A stretch of DNA of 64,000 nt from Patescibacteria group bacterium (GCA_035291665.1 DATDRP010000006.1:209255-273254); one strand, 5' to 3'. Shown: positions 2,624 to 64,000, counted from the first letter of the stretch. Notes: a model not told the origin generated them from the letters alone. Translations and numbers: made by a program.

Positions 2624-3757
2624 ATGAAGGGAAAAAAAATGATTAAAGAAACAGAAAAACAACTAGCATTAGATCAAAAATCACTCACAGATAAATACTA
2701 TGAGTTTATAGATTTTTCTTATGACTATGGAGCAATCTCAGATTTCCCGGTTCCGGGAAAGAAGGGACTTAATAGATATTTGCCGCTATTGCCGGTTGAG
2801 AGTGTTGATACCAAGATAAAAAATTTGGGGAATACTCCTTTGGAAAAGGCTAAAAAATTTGGTTATGAGGTTGGTTTGTCTAATCTTTGGATCAAAAGAG
2901 AAGACTTGAACCCGACTGGATGTTTTAAAGACAGAGAAAGCGCGGTAATAATTTCAGCTGCGAAAGAAAGAAACATCACTTCAGTATATGTTGTTTCCTC
3001 TGGTAATGCGGCTTTATCTACAGCTAAGTTTGCGAAAGAAGCCGGTATAGCCTGCACCTGCTATGTACCTGAAAAGACCTCTAAAGAAAAGAAAGACCTT
3101 ATCCAAAAATATGGAGCAGAACTCGAATTGATTCCCGGTTTTTATGAAGATGTATATAGAACTGTTGTAGACATGCATCCAAAAGGATGGAACGTTACTT
3201 CTGGACAAAATCCATACAGAATCGAGGGCGGTAAAACGATGGCTTATGAAATAGTTGAACAATTAAAAGAAGTCCCTGATGTTGTTGTTATTCCGAGTGG
3301 AAACGGAGGTTGTTTGGCTGCAACATGGAAAGGGTTTAAGGAACTCAAAGAAATTGGAAAAATAGATAAACTACCAAAAATGGTGTGCGTACAAATAAAA
3401 GGGGCAGCTCCAATAAAAGTAGCTTTAGAACAGAACAAACCTTATGTGGTCCTCGGAGAAATTGAGGACTCAGTTGCTGAAGGAATTGTTGCTCAAGAAT
3501 CATATAACTCTCCACAAGCAGTCCAAGCTCTGAAAGAGTCGGGGGGCTATGTAATCGAAGTGAATGATTCGGAAGTAATCAGCGCTCTGAAGAAAATTAT
3601 AGAAACAGAATCTATCGTTCCTGAACCAACATCTGCAGCCACATTTGCAGCATTATACAAATTGGAAGAACAATCTGACTCACTTGTCGTTGCCGTTAAT
3701 ACTGGTGACGGAAAGAAAATGATAGATGAGGTTAAACATCTAATTCAGAAAACCTAA
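2624..3757 (+). CDS. PLP-dependent fold-type II enzyme, threonine synthase-like
   Basis: GNTPLE...REDLNPTGCFKDRES lysine motif and a Gly-rich SGNGG loop, typical of threonine synthase or threonine dehydratase family enzymes. Confidence 0.65.
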   Translation: MKGKKMIKETEKQLALDQKSLTDKYYEFIDFSYDYGAISDFPVPGKKGLNRYLPLLPVESVDTKIKNLGNTPLEKAKKFGYEVGLSNLWIKREDLNPTGCFKDRESAVIISAAKERNITSVYVVSSGNAALSTAKFAKEAGIACTCYVPEKTSKEKKDLIQKYGAELELIPGFYEDVYRTVVDMHPKGWNVTSGQNPYRIEGGKTMAYEIVEQLKEVPDVVVIPSGNGGCLAATWKGFKELKEIGKIDKLPKMVCVQIKGAAPIKVALEQNKPYVVLGEIEDSVAEGIVAQESYNSPQAVQALKESGGYVIEVNDSEVISALKKIIETESIVPEPTSAATFAALYKLEEQSDSLVVAVNTGDGKKMIDEVKHLIQKT

Positions 3758-3759
3758 AT

Positions 3760-4590
3760 ATGAGTATCGTAGAATCAATTAACGGAAAAGATAAACCCAA
3801 AGGAAATTGGATCAGTGTGGAACATGAGGGGAGTTTTCATCAGATAGAAATTGCAAAAACTCCGGAACAGTTGGCCGAAGCAAAGGCGCTTGATGATTTG
3901 GTTTTTGCCGGACATGTTGGTATAACAATGAATGAATTATATGAAATTGCTAATAATGGAGCGGTATTGCTCATGCGAGATATTAATGGGAATTTAATTG
4001 GAGAATCACAGGTAATAACCTCACCAATATCCGAACATCCTAATTTAGATAAAGATGAAGCTTATAATTATGGAACTGCTATATATCCGGGATTACAGAA
4101 TAACGGATTGGCTCAAGTCTTATTCAAAGCTCAAGAACAGATTGCAATCGAAGCTGGAAAATCAAAGAGCACTCTGACAGTCAGGCTTGAAAATGCCCAA
4201 AGCATCAGGGGAAGATTTAAATCTGGCTTCTACATTGTAGGCTATGATCCAAACCATTATGGTTCGTTCGAAGATGGTGGAGCAAGATTAATTATGGAAA
4301 AAAACCTTTCAAGAAAAAATGGGGTGGTCCCAGTACCTGTTCTTGCGGGAATGGTTGATCAGGGAAAGGTGAGAATTATAAATGGCCATACCGAAAGTCC
4401 CAATATGAAAGATGAGGGGTTGTTAATTGGAATCGGTGTTAATTCAGGCGACGAAATAGACCATGCGGCACATGTTGCTGTGAAAGAAGTTTTTGAAAAT
4501 AATAAACATCTTGGTATCGGTATTCTAAAGTCATGTGAATTTAAGACTAAAGTTGACAAAACAAGCCTGTTAGTTTTTACTGAAAAATAA
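3760..4590 (+). CDS. hypothetical protein, possibly GNAT-fold in the N-terminal half
   Basis: Weak GNAT motif-A-like LQNNGLAQVLF...IEAGKS segment. The assignment is tentative. Confidence 0.35.
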   Translation: MSIVESINGKDKPKGNWISVEHEGSFHQIEIAKTPEQLAEAKALDDLVFAGHVGITMNELYEIANNGAVLLMRDINGNLIGESQVITSPISEHPNLDKDEAYNYGTAIYPGLQNNGLAQVLFKAQEQIAIEAGKSKSTLTVRLENAQSIRGRFKSGFYIVGYDPNHYGSFEDGGARLIMEKNLSRKNGVVPVPVLAGMVDQGKVRIINGHTESPNMKDEGLLIGIGVNSGDEIDHAAHVAVKEVFENNKHLGIGILKSCEFKTKVDKTSLLVFTEK

Positions 4591-38006: not shown

Positions 38007-38321
38007 TTACACAGCCTGAATATGAAGCTTTTTTTCAATTTTTTCAATCCGATTTAATATTAAGGGTCTTTCTTCTCTGGCTGTAACAACTTCCTTCAAA
38101 ATAGGATCTATTTTTGTAAAGAATTCACTTTTAAATTCTATGAGTTTTTCTTCGAATTTCTCTTCCTGTTCATCCAATTTACTCCCAAATTTTCTTTCCT
38201 GTTCATCCAATTTACCACCAAATCTTCGTTCCTGTTCATCCAATTTTTCACTAATTATTTGATCAAGTTTTAACTCGAATGCATCCAAACGTTCATCTAA
38301 ATCTTTTTTAGTTAATACCAT
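38007..38321 (-). CDS. small coiled-coil protein with tandem 11-aa repeats (KLDEQERKFGx)
   Basis: Three tandem 33-bp DNA repeats at 38162-38250 encode KLDEQERRFGG / KLDEQERKFGS / KLDEQEEKFEE. Confidence 0.5.
   Translation of the reverse strand: MVLTKKDLDERLDAFELKLDQIISEKLDEQERRFGGKLDEQERKFGSKLDEQEEKFEEKLIEFKSEFFTKIDPILKEVVTAREERPLILNRIEKIEKKLHIQAV
38162..38250 (-). repeat. 3 x 33-bp tandem repeat inside the coiled-coil protein gene
   Basis: CCTGTTCATCCAATTT recurs at 38165, 38198 and 38231, a period of 33. Confidence 0.8.
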
Positions 38322-38525: not shown

Positions 38526-38750
38526 TTACATATATGGATCCAGAAGCACGGCAAGTTCGTCGACAGAATCGGGGAAGTCGGTCTCATTTTCCGACAGTTC
38601 TTTTAACGCGTAGTTTAAATCTTCCCATTGATCAGTGGTGATGACATCGGTGGAATGTATATCATTGAGATTGGAAAGTAGTGAGCCCCAAGTTGATTCT
38701 TCGGTTGTATTCCAAAGCTCTTTTAATATTTTTTTGTTTACATCTGCCAT
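38526..38750 (-). CDS. small acidic hypothetical protein
   Basis: ORF only. Confidence 0.35.
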   Translation of the reverse strand: MADVNKKILKELWNTTEESTWGSLLSNLNDIHSTDVITTDQWEDLNYALKELSENETDFPDSVDELAVLLDPYM

Positions 38751-38841
38751 ACAGGTATTATATCAAACAGGTTACGGGTTATTTTTTTCGGTGTGTTCGA
38801 AAGCTACACACCGGGTGTGGGTAAATGATTCAATAGAACAA

Positions 38842-38901
38842 AGTCGAAGAGTTTGGGATAAGGGTATAGGGTGTAAGGCTATTTGCACCCTAAGGGTGTA
38901 A
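38842..38901 (+). repeat. palindrome-containing intergenic element, copy 1 (extended form), 7 nt upstream of the ATG at 38908
   Basis: AGTCGAAGAGTTTGGGATAAGGGTATAGGGTGTAAGGCTATTTGCACCCTAAGGGTGTAA. Core TTGCACCCTAAGGGTG. Confidence 0.8.
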
Positions 38902-38907
38902 TATTGA

Positions 38908-39657
38908 TTGGGGGTGATATATATGAATATGAAAAACGTCCTTCTAAGTTTGTGTACTTTCGCGTTATTATTAGGCTTGTTTACACTTCCGGCTCAAGCA
39001 GCTACTTTCTTAGATGATTTTAATGATGGAAATGCTGATGGATGGGACTTAAGTCAAACAGAACACCCATTATTAAATATTGGTAATTGGAGAGTTGTTG
39101 ATGGAAAATTAGTTCAAGATACAGGTTATGATGGTGTTCTTGCTTTATTACCGAACCAATACTCAGATCAAACAGATGAAACCTTACTAAAAGTTTATGG
39201 CCCTTCGGGTGCAACAGGATTTGTTATTTGGTATAAAGATAAAACCAATAGTGTATCAGTACTTGTTGCCAATGGACTAATTGGGGTTGCAGAAGTTTAC
39301 AACAATGTTTGGACTAATTATTCCTTCCCAGTAACATTTAACATTAACGAAGACAGATGGGCAGACCTTAAAGTAGAAGCAAACAGTCTTAATGGAGAAA
39401 TAAAGGTTTATTTGGACGGAACTTATTTGTTTACTTATAACGCAACTGCACCCAATCGTGTTGGTCAAACTGGATTTAAACAAGGAAATGCCGGTGGAGC
39501 ACATGATTACATCAGTATAATTACTCCTGATCCTAGTCCGACTAACAAAGATCAGTGTAAAAATGATGACTGGAAAACTTATGGTGAATTTAAAAACCAA
39601 GGAGATTGTATTTCTTTTGTAGTGACACGTGGTAATAGTTCACCAGCAGGTCAGTAG
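38908..39657 (+). CDS. secreted hypothetical protein (signal peptide; DDFNDGNADGW beta-sandwich/lectin-like motif)
   Basis: Signal peptide MKNVLLSLCTFALLLGLFTLPAQA. Possible concanavalin-like or DUF1080-like fold. GGGGGTGAT SD-like sequence. Confidence 0.5.
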   Translation: MGVIYMNMKNVLLSLCTFALLLGLFTLPAQAATFLDDFNDGNADGWDLSQTEHPLLNIGNWRVVDGKLVQDTGYDGVLALLPNQYSDQTDETLLKVYGPSGATGFVIWYKDKTNSVSVLVANGLIGVAEVYNNVWTNYSFPVTFNINEDRWADLKVEANSLNGEIKVYLDGTYLFTYNATAPNRVGQTGFKQGNAGGAHDYISIITPDPSPTNKDQCKNDDWKTYGEFKNQGDCISFVVTRGNSSPAGQ

Positions 39658-39738
39658 ATCTTGAATAAACAGATTCTTTAATTGCAGGGGAACGAAAGCA
39701 TCCCTACTTTTTATCATTTATAAAAATATTACATTGAA

Positions 39739-39764
39739 GCTATTTGCACTCTAAGGGTGCAACA
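39739..39764. repeat. palindromic element, copy 2 (core only), immediately 3' of the minus-strand gene 39768-40202
   Basis: GCTATTTGCACTCTAAGGGTGCAAC (one mismatch in the palindrome). Confidence 0.75.
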
Positions 39765-39767
39765 AAC

Positions 39768-40202
39768 CTAGCTATCCACCGCTGTTGTTTTATCTTCCGC
39801 GACCGCAAGCTTTTGCAAAAGTTTTGCAAACTCTTTCATTTTTTTACCTAAAGCCCGATTTCCTGAATTTACGTTTGAAAGCTCCCGTGATTCATCAAGA
39901 TTTACAAGTTTTAAATCGTGTTTTGATATTATGCCACATCGGGCTAAGTGACGTATGGAACGGTTTAAAAAATGGGAACTTGTTACTATTTTTTCCGGAA
40001 GTAATGAAACGATGGAGTCATCTCCATATTGTTCTATTAAATCAATATGACTTTTGGCCCAAGCAGTCCGTTTTTCTCTCGGATCACGTGGTAAATTTTC
40101 AAGATACTTAAGAAGCTCTTCTTTTAATTTAAGGTGATCATCTGTAGTTTCTTGATCAAAAGTATTCCTTCCCGACTCCATATTTTCTAACATTGTATGC
40201 AA
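39768..40202 (-). CDS. hypothetical protein
   Basis: ORF only. Confidence 0.45.
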   Translation of the reverse strand: MHTMLENMESGRNTFDQETTDDHLKLKEELLKYLENLPRDPREKRTAWAKSHIDLIEQYGDDSIVSLLPEKIVTSSHFLNRSIRHLARCGIISKHDLKLVNLDESRELSNVNSGNRALGKKMKEFAKLLQKLAVAEDKTTAVDS

Positions 40203-40235
40203 TTATACTTCGAGCTTATATGAAAATCGAAGAAA

Positions 40236-40285
40236 TAGGGAAAAGGGTATAGGGTGTAAAGCTAATTGCACCCTAAGGGTGCAGC
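40236..40285 (+). repeat. palindromic element, copy 3 (extended form), between divergent genes (starts at 40202 - and 40330 +)
   Basis: AGGGAAAAGGGTATAGGGTGTAAAGCTAATTGCACCCTAAGGGTGCAGCG. Confidence 0.8.
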
Positions 40286-40329
40286 GTTACAAATTTGAGA
40301 TTGGAATTTTAATATTATAAAATACCCGC

Positions 40330-40761
40330 ATGTCGATAGAACAAGATGGTGATAAAAACGAAGTGGAAGAATATCGCAAAAGAGTTGAAAGATTTATAAA
40401 GAGTGTTCTGAAGGAAAATATTTCAGATGCTGATGATGAAATTGTTGAAAAAGCACTTCCTATAGCTGTTGATTTATTTTTAGAAGCCAAAATGTTTTAC
40501 GAATTGGAGGAAAAAACTCTGAGGGCTACAATTGAATTTGCAGAAGCAGGTGAATACGAGCGAGCGCAAACATCTTCAAACGTCTCAAATTTTTTTCAGG
40601 AAAAACGAACAAAAACCCTTACAAAGCTCCAGGCTATAGGCGGATTGATTAATAATACCAGACACGTAAGTAAATACGGTGTGAATGATGTAATTGATAA
40701 TTTGTCTGATACTCCTTTCTTATACCTTTCGCCTCAAACAATTGTTGTAAGGGAAGAATAA
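40330..40761 (+). CDS. hypothetical protein
   Basis: ORF only. Confidence 0.45.
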   Translation: MSIEQDGDKNEVEEYRKRVERFIKSVLKENISDADDEIVEKALPIAVDLFLEAKMFYELEEKTLRATIEFAEAGEYERAQTSSNVSNFFQEKRTKTLTKLQAIGGLINNTRHVSKYGVNDVIDNLSDTPFLYLSPQTIVVREE

Positions 40762-40841
40762 ACAATAACTAAGGAAGAATATTTATAGGGGGTGTATTAG
40801 TAAATCATCCTGCGGTGATTATAATTCGAGATTAAGAGAAA

Positions 40842-40900
40842 GTTGAAGAGTATGGGAAAAGGGTATAGGGTGTAAAGCTAATTGAACCCTTAGGGTGTGT
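40842..40900 (+). repeat. palindromic element, copy 4 (extended form), upstream of gene 40987
   Basis: GTTGAAGAGTATGGGAAAAGGGTATAGGGTGTAAAGCTAATTGAACCCTTAGGGTGTGTC. The 5' extension AGTyGAAGAGTwTGGGA is shared with copy 1. Confidence 0.8.
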
Positions 40901-40986
40901 CGATTAAATATGTAATTTTAGAAGATATAATATAATCAATAGAAACCGTTCGCATATATGATTTCAAAAAATCACAATAATTCTAT

Positions 40987-41793
40987 ATGACCTATAAGGA
41001 ACCAGAGGACAATAATTCTTATCCGGTTGACTGGGAAAAACTTGTCGGAGAACAAGCGCGGCGGTTGCAGTTAGAAAAAGATGCCAAAAAAGGAATAGAA
41101 AAAGAAAGTGATGATAAAGCGGTCCGTTTTTTGCAAGAAATCGGGGCTAATGAATTATTAACCCAAATAAGAGATCAAGTCTGGAAAGCGGGTAGTGTAA
41201 TTCCAGTTTTTCCCGGAAGTAAAATCTACAAGCCTGGGTTTATGGAAACCTTTTGGTGGGCTTATAAAAGTAAAGAAGAATTAGGTTTGATACCAAAGAA
41301 TTGGTGGAAAAATGATTATATATATCGAAAACAAGCTCGGGAAATGAAAGGACCCTTTGGTGAAGCTGGTATTGCTTTGTGTTTAGCATGGGAAGAGAAA
41401 GCTATGTTTATAAGAAGTAATCCTGATCCCGAAGAAAGAGCCGAAGAAGGAATTAAAATCGTCCAAGCAGATGACCCGATTGTGATTAGATGCGCTTATT
41501 TGGGAATTGAGAATAACTACGCGCTTGGTGTAGCAAGGGGAGGGAGGAAAAAGTATCTAAATGATAATATAGGATATCTCCCAGTTTCGAGAATAACTAC
41601 ATTCGGAGTAGTACCAGATTTTGATCGACAAGAAGTTGGATTAACCGGCACATTTTTCGTACCCGAAGAATCGAATCCGAGGAAAAAATTGATTGAAGAA
41701 CTTGTCAAAAAAATATTACCGAATGAAGATTACAGTAGAGTGAAAGAGACAGAAGTCCATTCTTTTTCCCCCATCATTGAACTTTACGAATAA
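40987..41793 (+). CDS. hypothetical protein
   Basis: ORF only. Confidence 0.5.
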   Translation: MTYKEPEDNNSYPVDWEKLVGEQARRLQLEKDAKKGIEKESDDKAVRFLQEIGANELLTQIRDQVWKAGSVIPVFPGSKIYKPGFMETFWWAYKSKEELGLIPKNWWKNDYIYRKQAREMKGPFGEAGIALCLAWEEKAMFIRSNPDPEERAEEGIKIVQADDPIVIRCAYLGIENNYALGVARGGRKKYLNDNIGYLPVSRITTFGVVPDFDRQEVGLTGTFFVPEESNPRKKLIEELVKKILPNEDYSRVKETEVHSFSPIIELYE

Positions 41794-41995
41794 GTAGTTT
41801 AATTACAATTGAAGCCTCAAACAAATCATTAAAGGTCATAGACAAATATAAAAAGTGAGTCAAATCATAATCCTGAACCTGGTCGAAGGACTACAGATCT
41901 GCATTGTGGCGAGTAGATCGACTTCGCAGAGTTTGACTTAAACCTTCTTGATAGTCGGTATTTGGTTTTACTCTCAACTATTACTATCCCAAAAG

Positions 41996-42027
41996 GAAAA
42001 GTATTTGCACCCTAAGGGTGTAACATT
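41996..42027 (+). repeat. palindromic element, copy 5 (short form), upstream of gene 42095
   Basis: GGAAAAGTATTTGCACCCTAAGGGTGTAACATT. Relative to copies 1, 3 and 4 the GGTATAGGGTGTAAAGC segment is deleted. Confidence 0.75.
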
Positions 42028-42094
42028 AAAGTTTTTTTGTATAACAAAAAAAATATTGATTTGGAATAAATATAGGGTATAACAATCGATTACA

Positions 42095-42400
42095 ATGACA
42101 AAAAAAGGAACCTTGGGTTTTATTCAAAATACAGGGACAAAAGAAAACGGTGGAATTATTGTTGCATCCGATGATCCGAATGAAATTAAAAAACAGCTTG
42201 AAGAAGCTTTGGAATTAGCCCAATCTCAGGAAGGGTCCGGAAGAAAAGAATTTGATTTGGATGTTATCAAAAGTATGCTTGCAAGAGCAGAGAATGGATC
42301 AGAAGTATTTGAGGTACTAGAAAAATTAGAACAATTATTGCGGCTGGGTAAAGAAGCTCAAAAAAAGCCTATAGGATTTGAAATTCCAAAAAAAATATAA
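42095..42400 (+). CDS. hypothetical protein
   Basis: ORF only. Confidence 0.4.
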   Translation: MTKKGTLGFIQNTGTKENGGIIVASDDPNEIKKQLEEALELAQSQEGSGRKEFDLDVIKSMLARAENGSEVFEVLEKLEQLLRLGKEAQKKPIGFEIPKKI

Positions 42401-42485: not shown

Positions 42486-43832
42486 TTACAAATCAAATTC
42501 CTGATTTAATTGGGGGAGAAAGACCTCTTTTATTCCAAGTTCCTCTGATATTTTTTTGGAAAACACCGAGCGGACCTTGTCCTCCCCGTGTGTGACAAAA
42601 ACCTTTTTGATATTTTTAATGTGTCCAAGCCAATTTAAGAGTTGTTTTTGGTCCGCGTGAGAGCTCATCGCATCGGTAAAATTGACAGTTGCCTTGACAG
42701 AAATATTGACATTATCGATATTTACACTTTTATCTCCATCCAGAAGTTCGCGGCCAAGCGTATCTTCTCCCTGATAACCGACGATAAATAGCCGGGTCGA
42801 GAGCATGGGCAAATAATGTGCGGCGTGACCCAGGATCCTCCCGCCGGACATCATTCCGCTTCCGGCAATAATTACTTTGGAGCCGGTTTGTTCATGAACA
42901 GCCTGACTTTCTTTCCAATCATTTATAATTACAAGTCCGGGAAAATCGAAAGGGGAACCGAATTTCAAATCGTCCTGGATATGAGGATTAAATAGCTTTG
43001 AATACTCCAAATAATCCAAAGTCGCTTTTTGTGCCATTGGGCTGTCCAGATATACGGTGGTCTGATTCTTAACCTTTCCTGACTTTTTCAAATGTTTTAT
43101 AAGATGAAGTATTTCCTGGGTTCGATCAAGTGAAAAAGCCGGAATAAGAAGAGTTCCGCCCGATGTTTCAACAGCATTTATTTCTGATCCCAAAGCAATT
43201 GAGGGGTCCGATTTTTCATGGAGTCGATCGCCGTAGGTGGACTCGATAACCACCGCATCCGCAAAGTTAAGATATTCGGTTTCCTGTAAAAGATCCTCCG
43301 GAGTATTTCCCAAGTCCCCGCTAAAAATTATTTTCCGGTAGTTTCCTTTGGCGGTATTATCCACGATCTCCAAACTGGCCGATCCTAAAATATGCCCATC
43401 GTCATGAAATGTAACACTAAAATCACCTATTTGAAAAGGTGTCCGGTATTCGACAGTTTCGAACTTCTGAATTGTTTTTACTGCCATTTCTTCGTCGTAT
43501 AAAAATTCCCTGTCATCTTTTTGAGCAATTCTTGCGCTGTCCAAAAGTGACAGTTCCGTAAGGGCCCTGGTTGCAGGGGTCATCCTGATAGTACTTTTAT
43601 AGCCATTTTTTAAAAGTATAGGAAGTCGTCCGCAATGGTCCAAGTGTGCATGGGTGAGAACGGCGCTTGTAAGGGTGGTGACATCAAAATCGAACGGTTG
43701 GTAATTCAGTTCTTCATATTTGGTTCCCTGAAACATGCCAAGGTCGATAAGTATGGATTGTCCCGAATCGCCGGTTAAAATGTAACAAGATCCGGTTACA
43801 GAACCCGATGCCCCCAAAAATTTGACCTTCAT
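42486..43832 (-). CDS. metallo-beta-lactamase / beta-CASP family RNA-processing nuclease-like protein
   Basis: LTHAHLDHCGRLP (HxHxDH) and further His/Asp ligands. Size and C-terminal region are consistent with the beta-CASP subfamily. Confidence 0.65.
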   Translation of the reverse strand: MKVKFLGASGSVTGSCYILTGDSGQSILIDLGMFQGTKYEELNYQPFDFDVTTLTSAVLTHAHLDHCGRLPILLKNGYKSTIRMTPATRALTELSLLDSARIAQKDDREFLYDEEMAVKTIQKFETVEYRTPFQIGDFSVTFHDDGHILGSASLEIVDNTAKGNYRKIIFSGDLGNTPEDLLQETEYLNFADAVVIESTYGDRLHEKSDPSIALGSEINAVETSGGTLLIPAFSLDRTQEILHLIKHLKKSGKVKNQTTVYLDSPMAQKATLDYLEYSKLFNPHIQDDLKFGSPFDFPGLVIINDWKESQAVHEQTGSKVIIAGSGMMSGGRILGHAAHYLPMLSTRLFIVGYQGEDTLGRELLDGDKSVNIDNVNISVKATVNFTDAMSSHADQKQLLNWLGHIKNIKKVFVTHGEDKVRSVFSKKISEELGIKEVFLPQLNQEFDL

Positions 43833-54500: not shown

Positions 54501-54715
54501 ACCTCACCTTTATACCCTGCGTTCGCGATTGCTTTTAGAATCAAGTCTCTATTTATTTCTTGGTCTGCAGTTAAAAAGCCATCACCAGTTTTATGATCGA
54601 CAGACACGGTATCAACGCCTGGAATATCAGAAATCTCATCTTTTATAAGCATCTCACAGCTTTTGCAGTGCATTCCGTTGACATTAAATTTGACTGTATT
54701 TTTTCCGTTTTTCAT
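51548..54715 (-). CDS. copA: P1B-1 (CopA-type) Cu(I)-transporting P-type ATPase with two N-terminal HMA domains and an extra C-terminal domain
   Basis: GMHCKSC and GMHCTSC HMA motifs, CPC (VIACPCALG), [19 protein letters not shown]. About 170 aa beyond the last TM have no ATPase counterpart. Confidence 0.85.
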
Positions 54716-54846
54716 AGCAATTTCAAGGAAACCCCGATTCTATCGGGGAGGAATTGAACTTGATATATCATTCTCATTCAGATGTGAAACCACACTCACA
54801 AGAGCGTGGAGAATGTTATATAACTTTATATTCCATTCCCTCCAAA
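54716..54846 (-). promoter_or_regulatory. conserved promoter plus structured leader element, copy A, ending at the copA ATG
   Basis: On the minus strand: TTGGAG-N17-TATATAAC, then ACATTCTCC, hairpin, GGTTTCAC..GAGAATGATATATCAAGTTCAATTCCTCC, hairpin CCCCGATagaATCGGGG, GTTTCCTTGAAATTGCTATG. Confidence 0.55.
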
Positions 54847-55023: not shown

Positions 55024-56859
55024 TTAAATAACTGTAATAGTTCCCCTTGGAACTCCCATTGCACAAGTGATAGGGTACTTACCCGGTTTATCAGGGGTAA
55101 ATTCAAAGACTAGTGTTTTTCCCTTTTCCAAAAACTGCGGATTATCAGTTAGTTGAGGTATATAAATAGTACTCATGCAGCCGCTACCTTCATCTTTTAC
55201 ATCCACTTCCATGCGTACAGGCTTTCCGGCTTTAACGGTAAATTCAAAAGGAGAGATGTCCGTATCACTTTTATAGATGGTATTTAATATCTGGACGCCG
55301 TTTTCATTTTTGGCGAGGGTGGGTGTCACCCCCACACCAACTTTAGCCGCTTGTGCTTTTCCACCTCCGCAACCACAGCCCCCACTACCACTTCCGCAAC
55401 TACCATTTGCCACCGGTTGACCCACAGCGGGAGCTGTGTTTGCTGCTAGCACCTTATTGTCGTTATTGTTTACCTGACCATTAGAAGTGCCTTTTTCAAC
55501 AACCGCAAAACTTCCTGTGTACATTCCCATGCTGCAGGAGAAATTGATTGTTCCAACTTCTTTTGGAGTAAATTCGATTATATTTTCTCCAGGGTGCAGA
55601 CTTTGACGAACGTTTAGTTTCGATGAGACAATGCTCGAAGCACAGGTATTAGGATCCTTGGAGGTTATTATCCATTTTACAGGAACACCAACGGCAACAG
55701 TAAATTTATTCGGTGAATATCCTCTAGCCGTTTGGTCCATTCTCACAATCTGAACTCCGTCTTGTTCTTGAATTCCTGAATTTTTATCGGATGCAGCGTA
55801 TGCATTAATTCGAGTGCCTAAATCATTAAAAGGATTTGTTCCCAAAAGATTGAGGCCGTTATTCAGATTAAAGAAAGCCAATAGTGAAACTACTAATCCA
55901 GCAAATTTAAAAAACTTTTGAGCAAATACACCTTTGATAGCTGCAGTTAAACCTCCCACACTCAAAAGTCCAGGTGCGGTTCCCAAGGCAAAAATACCCA
56001 TAATTGCTGCTCCCTGAACAAAGCTACCAGTTGATACGGCATAAAGTTGCATTGCCTGGGTAAACCCGCATGGAAGGAAAAAAGTTGACCCGCCCATTAA
56101 AAATGCATTTTTATGACTATATTCCTTCTGTGTTTGTTCCTTAATTCCAAATAGTTTTGATATTCCTTTAGGCATTGAAAAACTAACATTCTGGAGTCTT
56201 GGGAAAAGGCCAGTAAGTTGTAATCCGAGTGTAAGCATTACGAGTGCAACGGCTGCAGTAACAAGTCCAAGACTTGTTCCGGAAAACTGAAAGAATGATC
56301 CCAAAAGTCCTATTGCGCCTCCGAGAATAGTGTAAGAAGTAATTCTTCCTAAGTTAAATAATAAATGGGGCTTAAATTTTTCAAAAGGGGTTGCGTTGGC
56401 ATTATTCTGTGAGAAACGAGCTGAAACTCCAAGTACAATTCCTCCGATTAATGCCATGCAAGTTGAAAATCCTGCGGTTAATCCAATAAGTGCAACCGTA
56501 AGTAAATTTGAAGGGTGACCGGGATTTACCGCAAAAAACTTTGACAATCCAAGTCCATCGACCAGAATAAAAAGAAAGAAAAGGACAATAGCTGCATAAA
56601 TTATGTCCATATAGTCTTCAACTTTGGCTGAGAATATGGGAGGTTTTTCTGCAAAACCCACTTGATAACCGGCATTTTGGACTGCTTTATCTATGTCTTC
56701 TACTTTCAATTCGGAGTTTGTATAACAAATTTCTGCACAGGCTTTTTTATGCGAAACGTCTACTTTTTTAACACCTTGGATGTTTTTTAATTCATCCTCT
56801 ATTAAGAGTTCACAGCTTCTGCAGTGCATTCCCTTTATTGGTACGATAGTTTTTTTCAT
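55024..56859 (-). CDS. fusion protein: N-terminal HMA domain, multi-TM Cys-containing permease-like core (DsbD/CcdA-like?), Cys-rich linker, two C-terminal Cys-Met beta-rich domains
   Basis: GMHCRSC. TM Cys in AGFSTCMALIGG and FFLPCGFTQ. Linker GSCGSGSGGCGCGGG. Repeats ...FSCSMGMYTGSF... and ...ITCAMGVPRGTI... Confidence 0.6.
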   Translation of the reverse strand: MKKTIVPIKGMHCRSCELLIEDELKNIQGVKKVDVSHKKACAEICYTNSELKVEDIDKAVQNAGYQVGFAEKPPIFSAKVEDYMDIIYAAIVLFFLFILVDGLGLSKFFAVNPGHPSNLLTVALIGLTAGFSTCMALIGGIVLGVSARFSQNNANATPFEKFKPHLLFNLGRITSYTILGGAIGLLGSFFQFSGTSLGLVTAAVALVMLTLGLQLTGLFPRLQNVSFSMPKGISKLFGIKEQTQKEYSHKNAFLMGGSTFFLPCGFTQAMQLYAVSTGSFVQGAAIMGIFALGTAPGLLSVGGLTAAIKGVFAQKFFKFAGLVVSLLAFFNLNNGLNLLGTNPFNDLGTRINAYAASDKNSGIQEQDGVQIVRMDQTARGYSPNKFTVAVGVPVKWIITSKDPNTCASSIVSSKLNVRQSLHPGENIIEFTPKEVGTINFSCSMGMYTGSFAVVEKGTSNGQVNNNDNKVLAANTAPAVGQPVANGSCGSGSGGCGCGGGKAQAAKVGVGVTPTLAKNENGVQILNTIYKSDTDISPFEFTVKAGKPVRMEVDVKDEGSGCMSTIYIPQLTDNPQFLEKGKTLVFEFTPDKPGKYPITCAMGVPRGTITVI

Positions 56860-56991
56860 AACAGTTTCAAGGAAACCGTAAACTTAATAGTTTACGGAGG
56901 AATTGAACCTGATATATCATTCTCCCTCAGGGGTGAAACCATGCCTAATGGCATGGAGAATGTTATAATCAGTTTTCCAACATCTGATCAA
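56860..56991 (-). promoter_or_regulatory. conserved promoter plus structured leader element, copy B, ending at the ATG of the HMA fusion gene
   Basis: TTGATC-N17-TTATAAC, then ACATTCTCC, hairpin CCATGCCattaGGCATGG, GTTTCAC..GGAGAATGATATATCAGGTTCAATTCCTCC, hairpin CGTAAACTattaAGTTTACG, GTTTCCTTGAAACTGTTATG. Confidence 0.55.
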
Positions 56992-59690: not shown

Positions 59691-59764
<74 letters not shown>

Positions 59765-63872: not shown

Positions 63873-64000
63873 GTTGTTAAGTATTAGTGTAAGTCCTGCA
63901 ACAAGATAATGTAAATGGATATTTATAACAGCGTTCAAGAATACCACGCCCTTTAGGGCGTGGATGAATTGAACTCAGATATGTCATCCTCCTTAGGGAA

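Follow-up and report, generated by a model that had tools for sequence, protein, structure and literature searches.

Five co-oriented copies of a hairpin-containing module in a Patescibacteria island of orphan genes, a possible promoter-upstream operator

The subject of this study is a short repeated DNA element in a 64,000-nucleotide (nt) stretch, here called the window, of a metagenome-assembled genome (MAG) of a Patescibacteria group bacterium (Candidate Phyla Radiation, CPR; GCA_035291665.1, DATDRP010000006.1:209255-273254), which originates from Joint Genome Institute (JGI) metagenome sample 3300002503. The element is centered on a 19-nt hairpin and occurs five times, always in the same orientation, within 3.2 kb, where it punctuates an island of five genes, designated A to E (HLE49442 to HLE49446), every one of which is annotated as hypothetical. 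We consider it possible, at a probability of roughly 0.4, that the five elements are copies of one lineage-specific, promoter-upstream control module, i.e. an operator for a dimeric or multimeric regulator, and that together they define a small private regulon. An earlier note on this DNA had named a co-regulated island with an operator for a dimeric regulator among several options, and this dedicated-regulon reading is the one best supported by where the copies and the predicted promoters lie.

The five hairpins are found at 38883-38901, 39744-39762, 40266-40284, 40882-40900 and 42005-42023, positions already reported in the earlier note and recovered here by both pattern and covariance-model scans. 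With up to three mismatches allowed, the 19-mer has four sites (38883, 39744, 40266 and 42005, with one mismatch each) against 0.01 expected by chance, and the 13-nt core CACCCTWAGGGTG with up to two mismatches picks out all five copies (0.5 expected) and no other site in the 64 kb. A 39-nt covariance model that was built from the five cores and run without filters likewise found only these five copies, with scores of 46-53 bits on the plus strand and 10-18 bits on the minus strand. Together with 18 kb of extra flank from both sides, about 82 kb of the source genome was examined; no further copies were found in the flanks, and the other ~79 kb outside the island is free of the element. A scatter through coding regions, which had been raised as counter-evidence to a dedicated role, is not seen over these 82 kb, where the motif has only its five intergenic copies. 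The repeat is thus real and highly non-random. Exact-pattern scans with TTGCACCCTAAGGGTGYA gave 2 matches in a viral collection, 5 in species-representative genomes and 16 in metagenomes, all of them single copies with unrelated flanks and, apart from one Gottesmanbacteria hairpin that is described below, at chance level; neither DNA collection scanned with this pattern includes the source organism. The extension motif AAGGGTATAGGGTGTAA had four matches in viral contigs, all within a phage coding region and unrelated. Though of a familiar kind, the element has no place in any described family, and it is confined to one uncultivated organism.

The hairpin had been described as a 19-nt perfect palindrome that recurs with 0-3 mismatches, and neither part of this description holds. 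Its consensus consists of 8-nt arms around an asymmetric 3-nt TAA spacer, which reads TTA in the reverse complement, and no copy is identical to this consensus, the mismatches being 1, 1, 1, 5 and 1 in copies 1 to 5. The spacer is TAA in four of the five copies and TTA in copy 4. Three copies carry a full module, about 80 nt of which are certain and possibly about 140 nt, in the order TYGAAGA...GGGAWAAGGGTATA, a half-site GGGTGTAA, a 6-nt gap and the 8-3-8 inverted repeat TTGCACCC-TAA-GGGTGYAA. Copy 1 (38819..38901, on the plus strand, as are all the others) combines the 5' extension with the hairpin TTGCACCC-TAA-GGGTGTAA, copy 3 (40202..40284) has TTGCACCC-TAA-GGGTGCAG in the same arrangement, and copy 4 (40818..40900) is a full module with a decayed hairpin, TTGAACCC-TTA-GGGTGTGT, in which the five mismatches reside. 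The third half-site, which the earlier note does not mention, starts within the extension at 38869 (38869-38876), 40252 (40252-40259) and 40868 (40868-40875); it repeats the right arm in direct orientation, and 6 nt separate it from the left arm. A 5' extension in three copies was among the earlier claims, and AAGGGTATAGGGTGTAARGCTA is indeed exact in copies 1, 3 and 4. Over 80 nt, copies 3 and 4 have 84% identity, a 31-nt exact run included, and copy 1 can be aligned to both over about 60 nt, so that the sharing of about 60 nt between copies 1 and 4 is borne out as well. Copy 2 (39736..39774; hairpin TTGCACTC-TAA-GGGTGCAA) is a short core only, and copy 5 (41997..42035; intact hairpin TTGCACCC-TAA-GGGTGTAA) is a core with an upstream extension that is degenerate or absent; both have only the roughly 30-nt core in common with the other copies. 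The clean internal deletion that had been proposed for copy 5 finds no support, as its homology to the other copies can be demonstrated only from 41997 onward. In the 5' extensions (38855-38876, 40239-40259 and 40855-40875) we also observed G-triplets at a 7-nt period (GGGAWAA GGGTATA GGGTGTA), with the fourth GGG of the series located in the right arm of the hairpin, and these triplets could possibly serve as heptad binding sites, or form a G-quadruplex in competition with the hairpin. There is no paralogy among the island genes, whose proteins are unrelated to each other, while copies 3 and 4 are 84% identical, and it is therefore the non-coding module that was copied or conserved.

Along the plus strand the order is the gene s74 (minus strand), copy 1, A (plus), copy 2, B (minus), copy 3, C (plus), copy 4, D (plus), copy 5, E (plus) and a beta-CASP RNase gene (minus). 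Every copy is intergenic, as had been noted, with copy 3 between the divergent genes B and C, separated from B by 8 nt, and copy 2 directly 3' of minus-strand B. The end of copy 1 lies 21 nt 5' of the start of A, and copy 2, located between the convergent A and B, lies 86 nt past the A stop and about 5-6 nt from the stop codon of B. In place of the 7-90 nt that had been given for four copies ahead of plus-strand starts, the gaps between hairpin and annotated start are 21, 45, 86 and 71 nt for A, C, D and E, and copy 2 is upstream of nothing.

The positions of these hairpins gain meaning from the promoters that can be predicted in the same gaps. Many genes of the window are preceded by a TAnnnT or TGnTAnnnT box that ends 6-10 nt before the ATG, without a Shine-Dalgarno sequence (e.g. 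upstream of 1857, 24992, 26798, 37193, 38750 on the minus strand, 43832 on the minus strand, and 44458), which suggests that leaderless mRNAs from sigma-70-type or extended -10 promoters are widespread in this genome. When this genome's own -10 box rule is used to predict the promoters and transcription starts of B to E, B obtains a perfect TATAAT at 40207-40202 on the minus strand, 8 nt before its ATG and within the 5' end of copy 3. For C the prediction is TTGAGA-17-TAAAAT (40295..40323, plus strand), ending 6 nt before the ATG, and the C transcript is probably leaderless; D would have its core promoter and leader at 40903..40986 (plus strand; -10 GATATAAT, with TATAAT at 40926-40931), and the predicted promoter of E (TTGATT-16-TATAAC, 42056..42083, plus strand) stops 11 nt short of the ATG. 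C, D and E thus have their predicted promoters just 3' of hairpins, which places the hairpins upstream of the promoters and outside those leaders, with centers at about -55 (C, copy 3), -47 (D, copy 4) and -76 (E, copy 5) relative to the predicted starts. These starts would be near 40330, 40938 and 42090 on the plus strand, and that of B near 40194 on the minus strand. Except at copy 2, the locus therefore presents what an operator calls for, an 8-3-8 inverted repeat of suitable size in predicted promoter-proximal DNA, and the extra half-sites fit multi-site binding.

A comparison with a second genome points in the same direction. The sole homologue of D among 5.8 billion proteins (65% identity) comes from another Rifle-type metagenome, and its locus (L029/L030) has retained about 80 nt of the promoter and leader, corresponding to window positions 40907-40986 up to the ATG. 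Homology between the two D loci begins 7 nt past the copy-4 hairpin, and the place of the hairpin is occupied in the homologue by three exact GTGTGGTCAA direct repeats, which are unrelated to it. A conserved core promoter that is combined with interchangeable upstream repeats is the pattern to be expected if regulator sites had been swapped. A 10-codon upstream open reading frame (ORF) at 40958-40990, whose TGA stop overlaps the ATG of D (ATGA), is not conserved at the D homologue locus.

If the five elements are operators, a dimeric or multimeric regulator would bind the DNA at the inverted repeat together with the extra half-site. This regulator would act, through activation or repression and at distances of about -47 to -76, on the promoters of A, C, D and E, which have weak -35 boxes and are often leaderless, and from the middle of the divergent B/C region on B as well. 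Five unrelated orphan genes of a strain-specific island would thereby come under one control, and the module would have spread by duplication of regulatory DNA, not of genes; copy 2 would be truncated and have no promoter to serve, whether as a relic, as an auxiliary or looping site, or as a roadblock. The likeness to operators of known dimeric factors includes the inverted repeat with 8-bp arms, the 19-bp length and the additional half-sites, the intergenic location just 5' of predicted core promoters as well as midway between two divergent genes, and the presence of other upstream repeats at the homologous promoter in another genome.

Elsewhere in the window we observed a second, independent family of duplicated upstream sequences (54708-54792, 56852-56941, 56858-56915 and 63925-63982; 89-92% identical, with long imperfect palindromes), which precede heavy-metal ATPase or HMA-domain genes near a CsoR-like repressor gene (PF02583) and are probably metal-regulator operators. 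With this family at metal-resistance genes, the duplication of regulatory regions appears to be habitual in this genome. In the closest relative with respect to the beta-CASP gene (L035), a 22-nt promoter-like motif, GAAGYYGAAARTGGTAAAAT, stands immediately 5' of three consecutive genes (2320-2341, 3117-3138 and 4520-4541), another locally repeated promoter sequence in the lineage.

Several features weigh against an operator function. Copy 2, between convergent genes, has no promoter to regulate, no good promoter was found for gene A, and all promoter positions are predictions. The distances from hairpin to start and from hairpin to promoter (about -47, -55 and -76) are variable. The element is absent at the promoter of the single D orthologue (the databases hold no other orthologues), and the island is absent from the beta-CASP relatives, so that orthologous conservation is lacking. 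All five copies share their orientation and the left flank AAGCTAWT, and four of five the asymmetric TAA spacer, none of which a symmetric operator needs; these shared features point to common descent or to a strand-specific role. Moreover, the stem substitutions in copies 1, 2, 3 and 5 are transitions that all leave a G.U pair on the plus strand, a pattern that an RNA or single-strand structure would explain no less well than protein binding. Unlike the operators of known dimeric factors, the copies at this locus are co-oriented, have asymmetric flanks and spacer in common, keep no constant distance to the promoter, include one that is promoterless, and are repeated as a whole module of about 80 nt and not as the site alone. 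No cognate regulator was identified for them, gene B being the only candidate.

The product of B had no homologue by word search, and full phmmer searches returned seven distant homologues (P0124-P0130), a family of eight members among 1.8 billion representatives. A helix-hairpin-helix segment of this family, a module that occurs twice in one member, resembles the C-terminal domain of the RNA polymerase alpha subunit: in the PDB the family profile weakly matches such a domain (1z3e_B, E = 8e-4), PF03118 is matched by four of the eight members, at best with E = 5.9e-6, and hhalign of the family against the domain gives E = 0.0026 at a probability of 11%. Against this, B alone has no significant Pfam match, fold searches with its structural model (pLDDT, the predicted local distance difference test score, of 75) match no DNA-binding fold and are uninformative, the loci of the B homologues contain no similar palindrome and have half-site counts near chance, and domains of this type usually bind the A/T-rich minor groove. 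B is the only candidate DNA-binding protein of the island, and its link to the palindrome is weak. Stand-alone proteins that resemble the alpha-subunit C-terminal domain are not annotated as such.

The strand asymmetry is the starting point for a different explanation, in which the element is transcribed, folds as a plus-strand RNA hairpin with an 8-bp stem and a UAA loop, and acts on RNA. The hairpin could be a 5'-terminal stabilizer of transcripts that begin within the 5' extension (where TYGAAG-17-TAGGGT is promoter-like), an intercistronic or 3' stabilizer or processing site in read-through transcripts of A, C-D and D-E, like the repetitive extragenic palindromic (REP) hairpins in E. coli operons, or a switch in which the upstream GGGUGUAA pairs with the left arm in place of the right arm. 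All five copies lie on the plus strand, the coding strand of four of the five genes, 38 of the 40 stem cells are paired on that strand, and the four distinct substitutions are all G.U there and would be C.A on the minus strand. In the minimum-free-energy fold of copy 1 the upstream half-site pairs with the left arm, so that two hairpins which exclude each other differ little in energy. Neither C nor D is followed by a terminator, and read-through may therefore carry transcription across copies 4 and 5. Set against this, compensatory double changes number zero, and the four pairs with one-sided changes come from only five related sequences; for four one-sided transitions the odds are no more than about 1 in 16, and the copies have a common descent. 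The fold z-scores (-0.6 to -2.4) are unremarkable, and the hairpin of copy 4 is broken in spite of a perfectly preserved extension. Since copies 1 and 3 come after divergent genes, their transcription would require that the weak promoter-like sequence of the extension is real, and the best predicted promoters of C, D and E lie 3' of the hairpin, which also weakens the 5' stem-loop RNA suggested in the earlier note. We regard an RNA function as unlikely, if worth keeping in mind.

Two better known kinds of RNA element were considered alongside it, and the results for both also count against an RNA function. Canonical terminators, hairpins followed by a run of T7-8, are present elsewhere in the window, and the U tract that such real terminators of this genome possess is missing in most copies of the element. 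An intrinsic terminator was rejected, as only copy 1 (plus strand) and copy 3 (minus strand) pass a lenient T-count, and copies 1 and 3 follow no co-directional gene. Rfam at gathering thresholds returned only a tRNA-Gln at 59694, and an E-value search of 38700-42200 up to E = 10 gave four chance-level matches, none of them on the element, so that a riboswitch or known small RNA was rejected as well.

The common descent of the copies would also be accounted for by a relic or selfish repeat without present function, be it a palindrome like those of miniature inverted-repeat transposable elements (MITE) or REPs, or the product of local gene conversion or duplication in a fast-evolving island. 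The copies form a decay series, from full modules through the truncated copies 2 and 5 to the broken stem of copy 4; flanks and asymmetric spacer are shared by descent, and across the collections scanned the element is unique to one organism. Short assemblies end at the 31-nt exact repeat: two short-read assemblies of the organism stop exactly at copy 4, as such a repeat would lead one to expect. What speaks against a relic is that the element is not dispersed, with none in the other roughly 79 kb, and has a single orientation, unlike the paired REPs known as REPINs; that terminal inverted repeats or target duplications around the copies and, over the 82 kb, a transposase are all absent; that the placement is exact, with one copy per intergenic gap and next to promoters; and that four of the five copies retain the hairpin with only wobble-compatible changes. 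Such a relic seems to us distinctly unlikely. REPs are dispersed genome-wide in tens to hundreds of copies, commonly as inverted pairs, and are associated with REP-associated tyrosine transposases, RAYTs (PMC3116915, PMC3337134). The element is like a REP as a short extragenic palindrome with a GC-rich stem, in being intergenic only, and as a possible stabilizer of upstream mRNA; unlike a REP, it has five co-oriented copies in one 3.2-kb island, no RAYT, and a conserved 5' extension of about 60 nt. A REP/REPIN-RAYT system was therefore rejected, there being no copy in the other roughly 79 kb and no Y1 transposase in the 82 kb.

A further possibility arises from the regular alternation of repeat and gene. 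The hairpins could be recombination sites, used either double-stranded or as a folded single strand, where a recombinase whose gene lies elsewhere in the genome inserted single genes one after another, and such non-integron cassette junctions would account for the position and orientation of all five copies: every gene, the reversed B included, is tightly bracketed by co-oriented copies, with 5 nt between B and copy 2 and 8 nt between B and copy 3. The units are 522-1123 bp in length, typical of cassettes, and their genes are unrelated orphans. The two D loci become homologous 7 nt past a hairpin, and the succession of half-site 1, 6-nt gap and half-site 2 resembles the core site of a tyrosine recombinase. 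The island is also missing beside the closest beta-CASP orthologue, which is 91% identical. This orthologue and the two next closest (76% and 75% identity) have entirely different neighbor genes, without synteny, and the island is therefore part of a variable region.

Units that are bracketed by hairpins and possibly related occur at two loci in other genomes. In L029 the D homologue lies between two 127-nt repeats (2062-2188 and 3508-3634; 96% identical), each with a hairpin, GCACTTAG-N6-CTAAGTGC, whose outer arms (TTGCAC...GTGCCAA) are similar to those of the element studied here. Each of these repeats precedes, as its upstream region (TTGACA-17-TTAAAT, leaderless), a small coiled-coil gene that is a homologue of the one at window 38007-38321. 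The second locus is the Gottesmanbacteria hairpin mentioned above (Candidatus Gottesmanbacteria MAG JACREK010000072, L008, about 4318-4410), where a near-identical hairpin with a duplicated half-site, GGCTGCACCC-TTA-GGGTGCAAGGCT followed by a second GGGTGCAAGGCT, makes up an insert of 45 nt, whose neighbor genes were read as aroF-like and pheA-like. The first codons of the downstream gene are directly duplicated over 21 nt, and this duplication flanks the insert, which in its sequence looks like an insertion with target duplication. For the cassette interpretation both loci have their reservations, in that the repeats of L029 are no more than what lies upstream of two small paralogous genes, and the L008 match was picked out by the search pattern itself.

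At the island itself, the genes of the 82 kb contain no recombinase, integrase or transposase domain, the element has no attC features, and a sixth copy after E is missing. The available assemblies of the organism are 100% identical across the island, with no gain, loss or reshuffling among them. Near-identical variants of A and B occur on short ENA contigs (clusters with P0135, P0136 and P0137). In addition, B, C, D and E have predicted promoters of their own, and a junction would need far less than the 80-nt module, which also contains the predicted promoter of B. We therefore hold cassette junctions of this kind to be quite unlikely, and very unlikely in the more specific form of a previously unknown non-integron gene-cassette system of the CPR, with the third half-site as a flanking element and the recombinase encoded elsewhere.

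The integron-like cassette array proposed in the earlier note has to be judged separately. Integron cassettes are promoterless and are expressed from a common promoter, Pc, and their content varies between strains. The attC sites of integrons comprise R''(RYYYAAC)...R'(GTTRRRY) cores, L boxes, an unpaired central spacer and extrahelical bases, with a length of about 55-140 nt, and attC clusters that lack an integrase (CALIN) are known (Cury et al. 2016, PMC4889954). The island is like integron arrays and CALIN in its repeat-ORF-repeat-ORF layout with co-oriented, foldable palindromic repeats, and in its cassette-sized units of unrelated genes without database homologues; it is like CALIN in having no nearby integrase. 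Unlike integrons, it lacks R and L boxes as well as GTTRRRY/RYYYAAC cores, and its repeats have neither an unpaired central spacer nor extrahelical bases; its single stem of 19 nt compares with roughly 55 nt or more for attC, its genes have predicted promoters of their own, there is no IntI in the 82 kb, and cassette content does not vary among the identical assemblies. No RYYYAAC...GTTRRRY pair at 40-150 nt spacing was found on either strand of 38700-42200. Both integron and CALIN were rejected on the missing attC cores and two-box structure, the element being an uninterrupted 8-bp stem with a 3-nt loop, 19 nt in all, and the integron also on the lack of any Phage_integrase, recombinase or transposase match in the window and its 18-kb flanks. 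What stands of the proposal is thus the layout of repeat and ORF, co-oriented even around B; the attC pair and the integrase do not, and the genes' own predicted promoters speak against it.

Other familiar sites share single traits with the element. We agree with the earlier note that it matches no LexA, CIRCE, Fur or sigma-54 site. The operator of HrcA, CIRCE (controlling inverted repeat of chaperone expression), has the consensus TTAGCACTC-N9-GAGTGCTAA and is located upstream of chaperone operons. Its half-site is alike (GCACYC / GRGTGC, with TT and AA ends), and it was rejected as an identity because the spacer is 3 nt and not 9, and because the element is not upstream of groES/groEL or dnaK but flanked by orphan genes. 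A sigma-54 promoter was rejected on the element's GG-to-GC spacing, which is 15 and not 12, and a CRISPR (clustered regularly interspaced short palindromic repeats) array because the units here are 500-1100 nt long and contain genes. The core sites of tyrosine recombinases, including those of the FRT (Flp recognition target) type, have a 6-bp core spacer and in some cases a third symmetry element. Like FRT-type sites, the full module contains one 8-bp element three times, first direct, then inverted, then direct again, with half-sites 1 and 2 placed 6 bp apart; here, the pair common to all five copies has a 3-bp spacer, and there is neither a recombinase in the 82 kb nor evidence of recombination.

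Gene A (38923..39657, plus strand; HLE49442.1) encodes a 244-amino acid (aa) predicted secreted protein with a signal-peptide-like N-terminus and no family match, and is preceded by a Shine-Dalgarno-like GGGGGTGA at 38910-38917 (plus strand). B (39768..40193, minus strand; HLE49443.1) and C (40330..40761, plus strand; HLE49444.1) encode orphans of 141 and 143 aa, D (40987..41793, plus strand; HLE49445.1) a protein of 268 aa, and E (42095..42400, plus strand; HLE49446.1) an orphan of 101 aa with a weak match to phrog_9619, a family of unknown function. Beyond this weak match of E, searches of A to E and their neighbors against Pfam, NCBIfam, PHROGs and PADLOC returned nothing; PDB sequence searches of A, C, D and E gave no match, or compositional matches to designed helical proteins, and tblastn of D and E against phages gave no match. 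Upstream of the island, a minus-strand gene (38007-38321), homologous to the paired L029 genes, contains three in-frame 33-nt tandem repeats (38155-38253; 73-85% identical) that encode the repeated peptide KLDEQER.FG. in a small coiled-coil protein. On the other side, the beta-CASP / metallo-beta-lactamase RNase gene (42486-43832, minus strand) has as its top NCBIfam match the type VII CRISPR Cas14, at 344 bits against a cutoff of 800; its product is an ordinary beta-CASP ribonuclease and no CRISPR component.

The significance of these results is local, as they concern one uncultivated organism and genes without known function, and it would be far greater only if the hairpins were recombination junctions. 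To our knowledge, almost nothing is known about the control of transcription in Patescibacteria. If the five elements are indeed promoter-upstream operators, they would be among the very few candidate cis-regulatory sites described for this group, the five orphan genes would constitute one co-regulated unit, and the 19-mer would provide a bait for the regulator. The same reading would also draw attention to a small protein family that resembles the C-terminal domain of the RNA polymerase alpha subunit.

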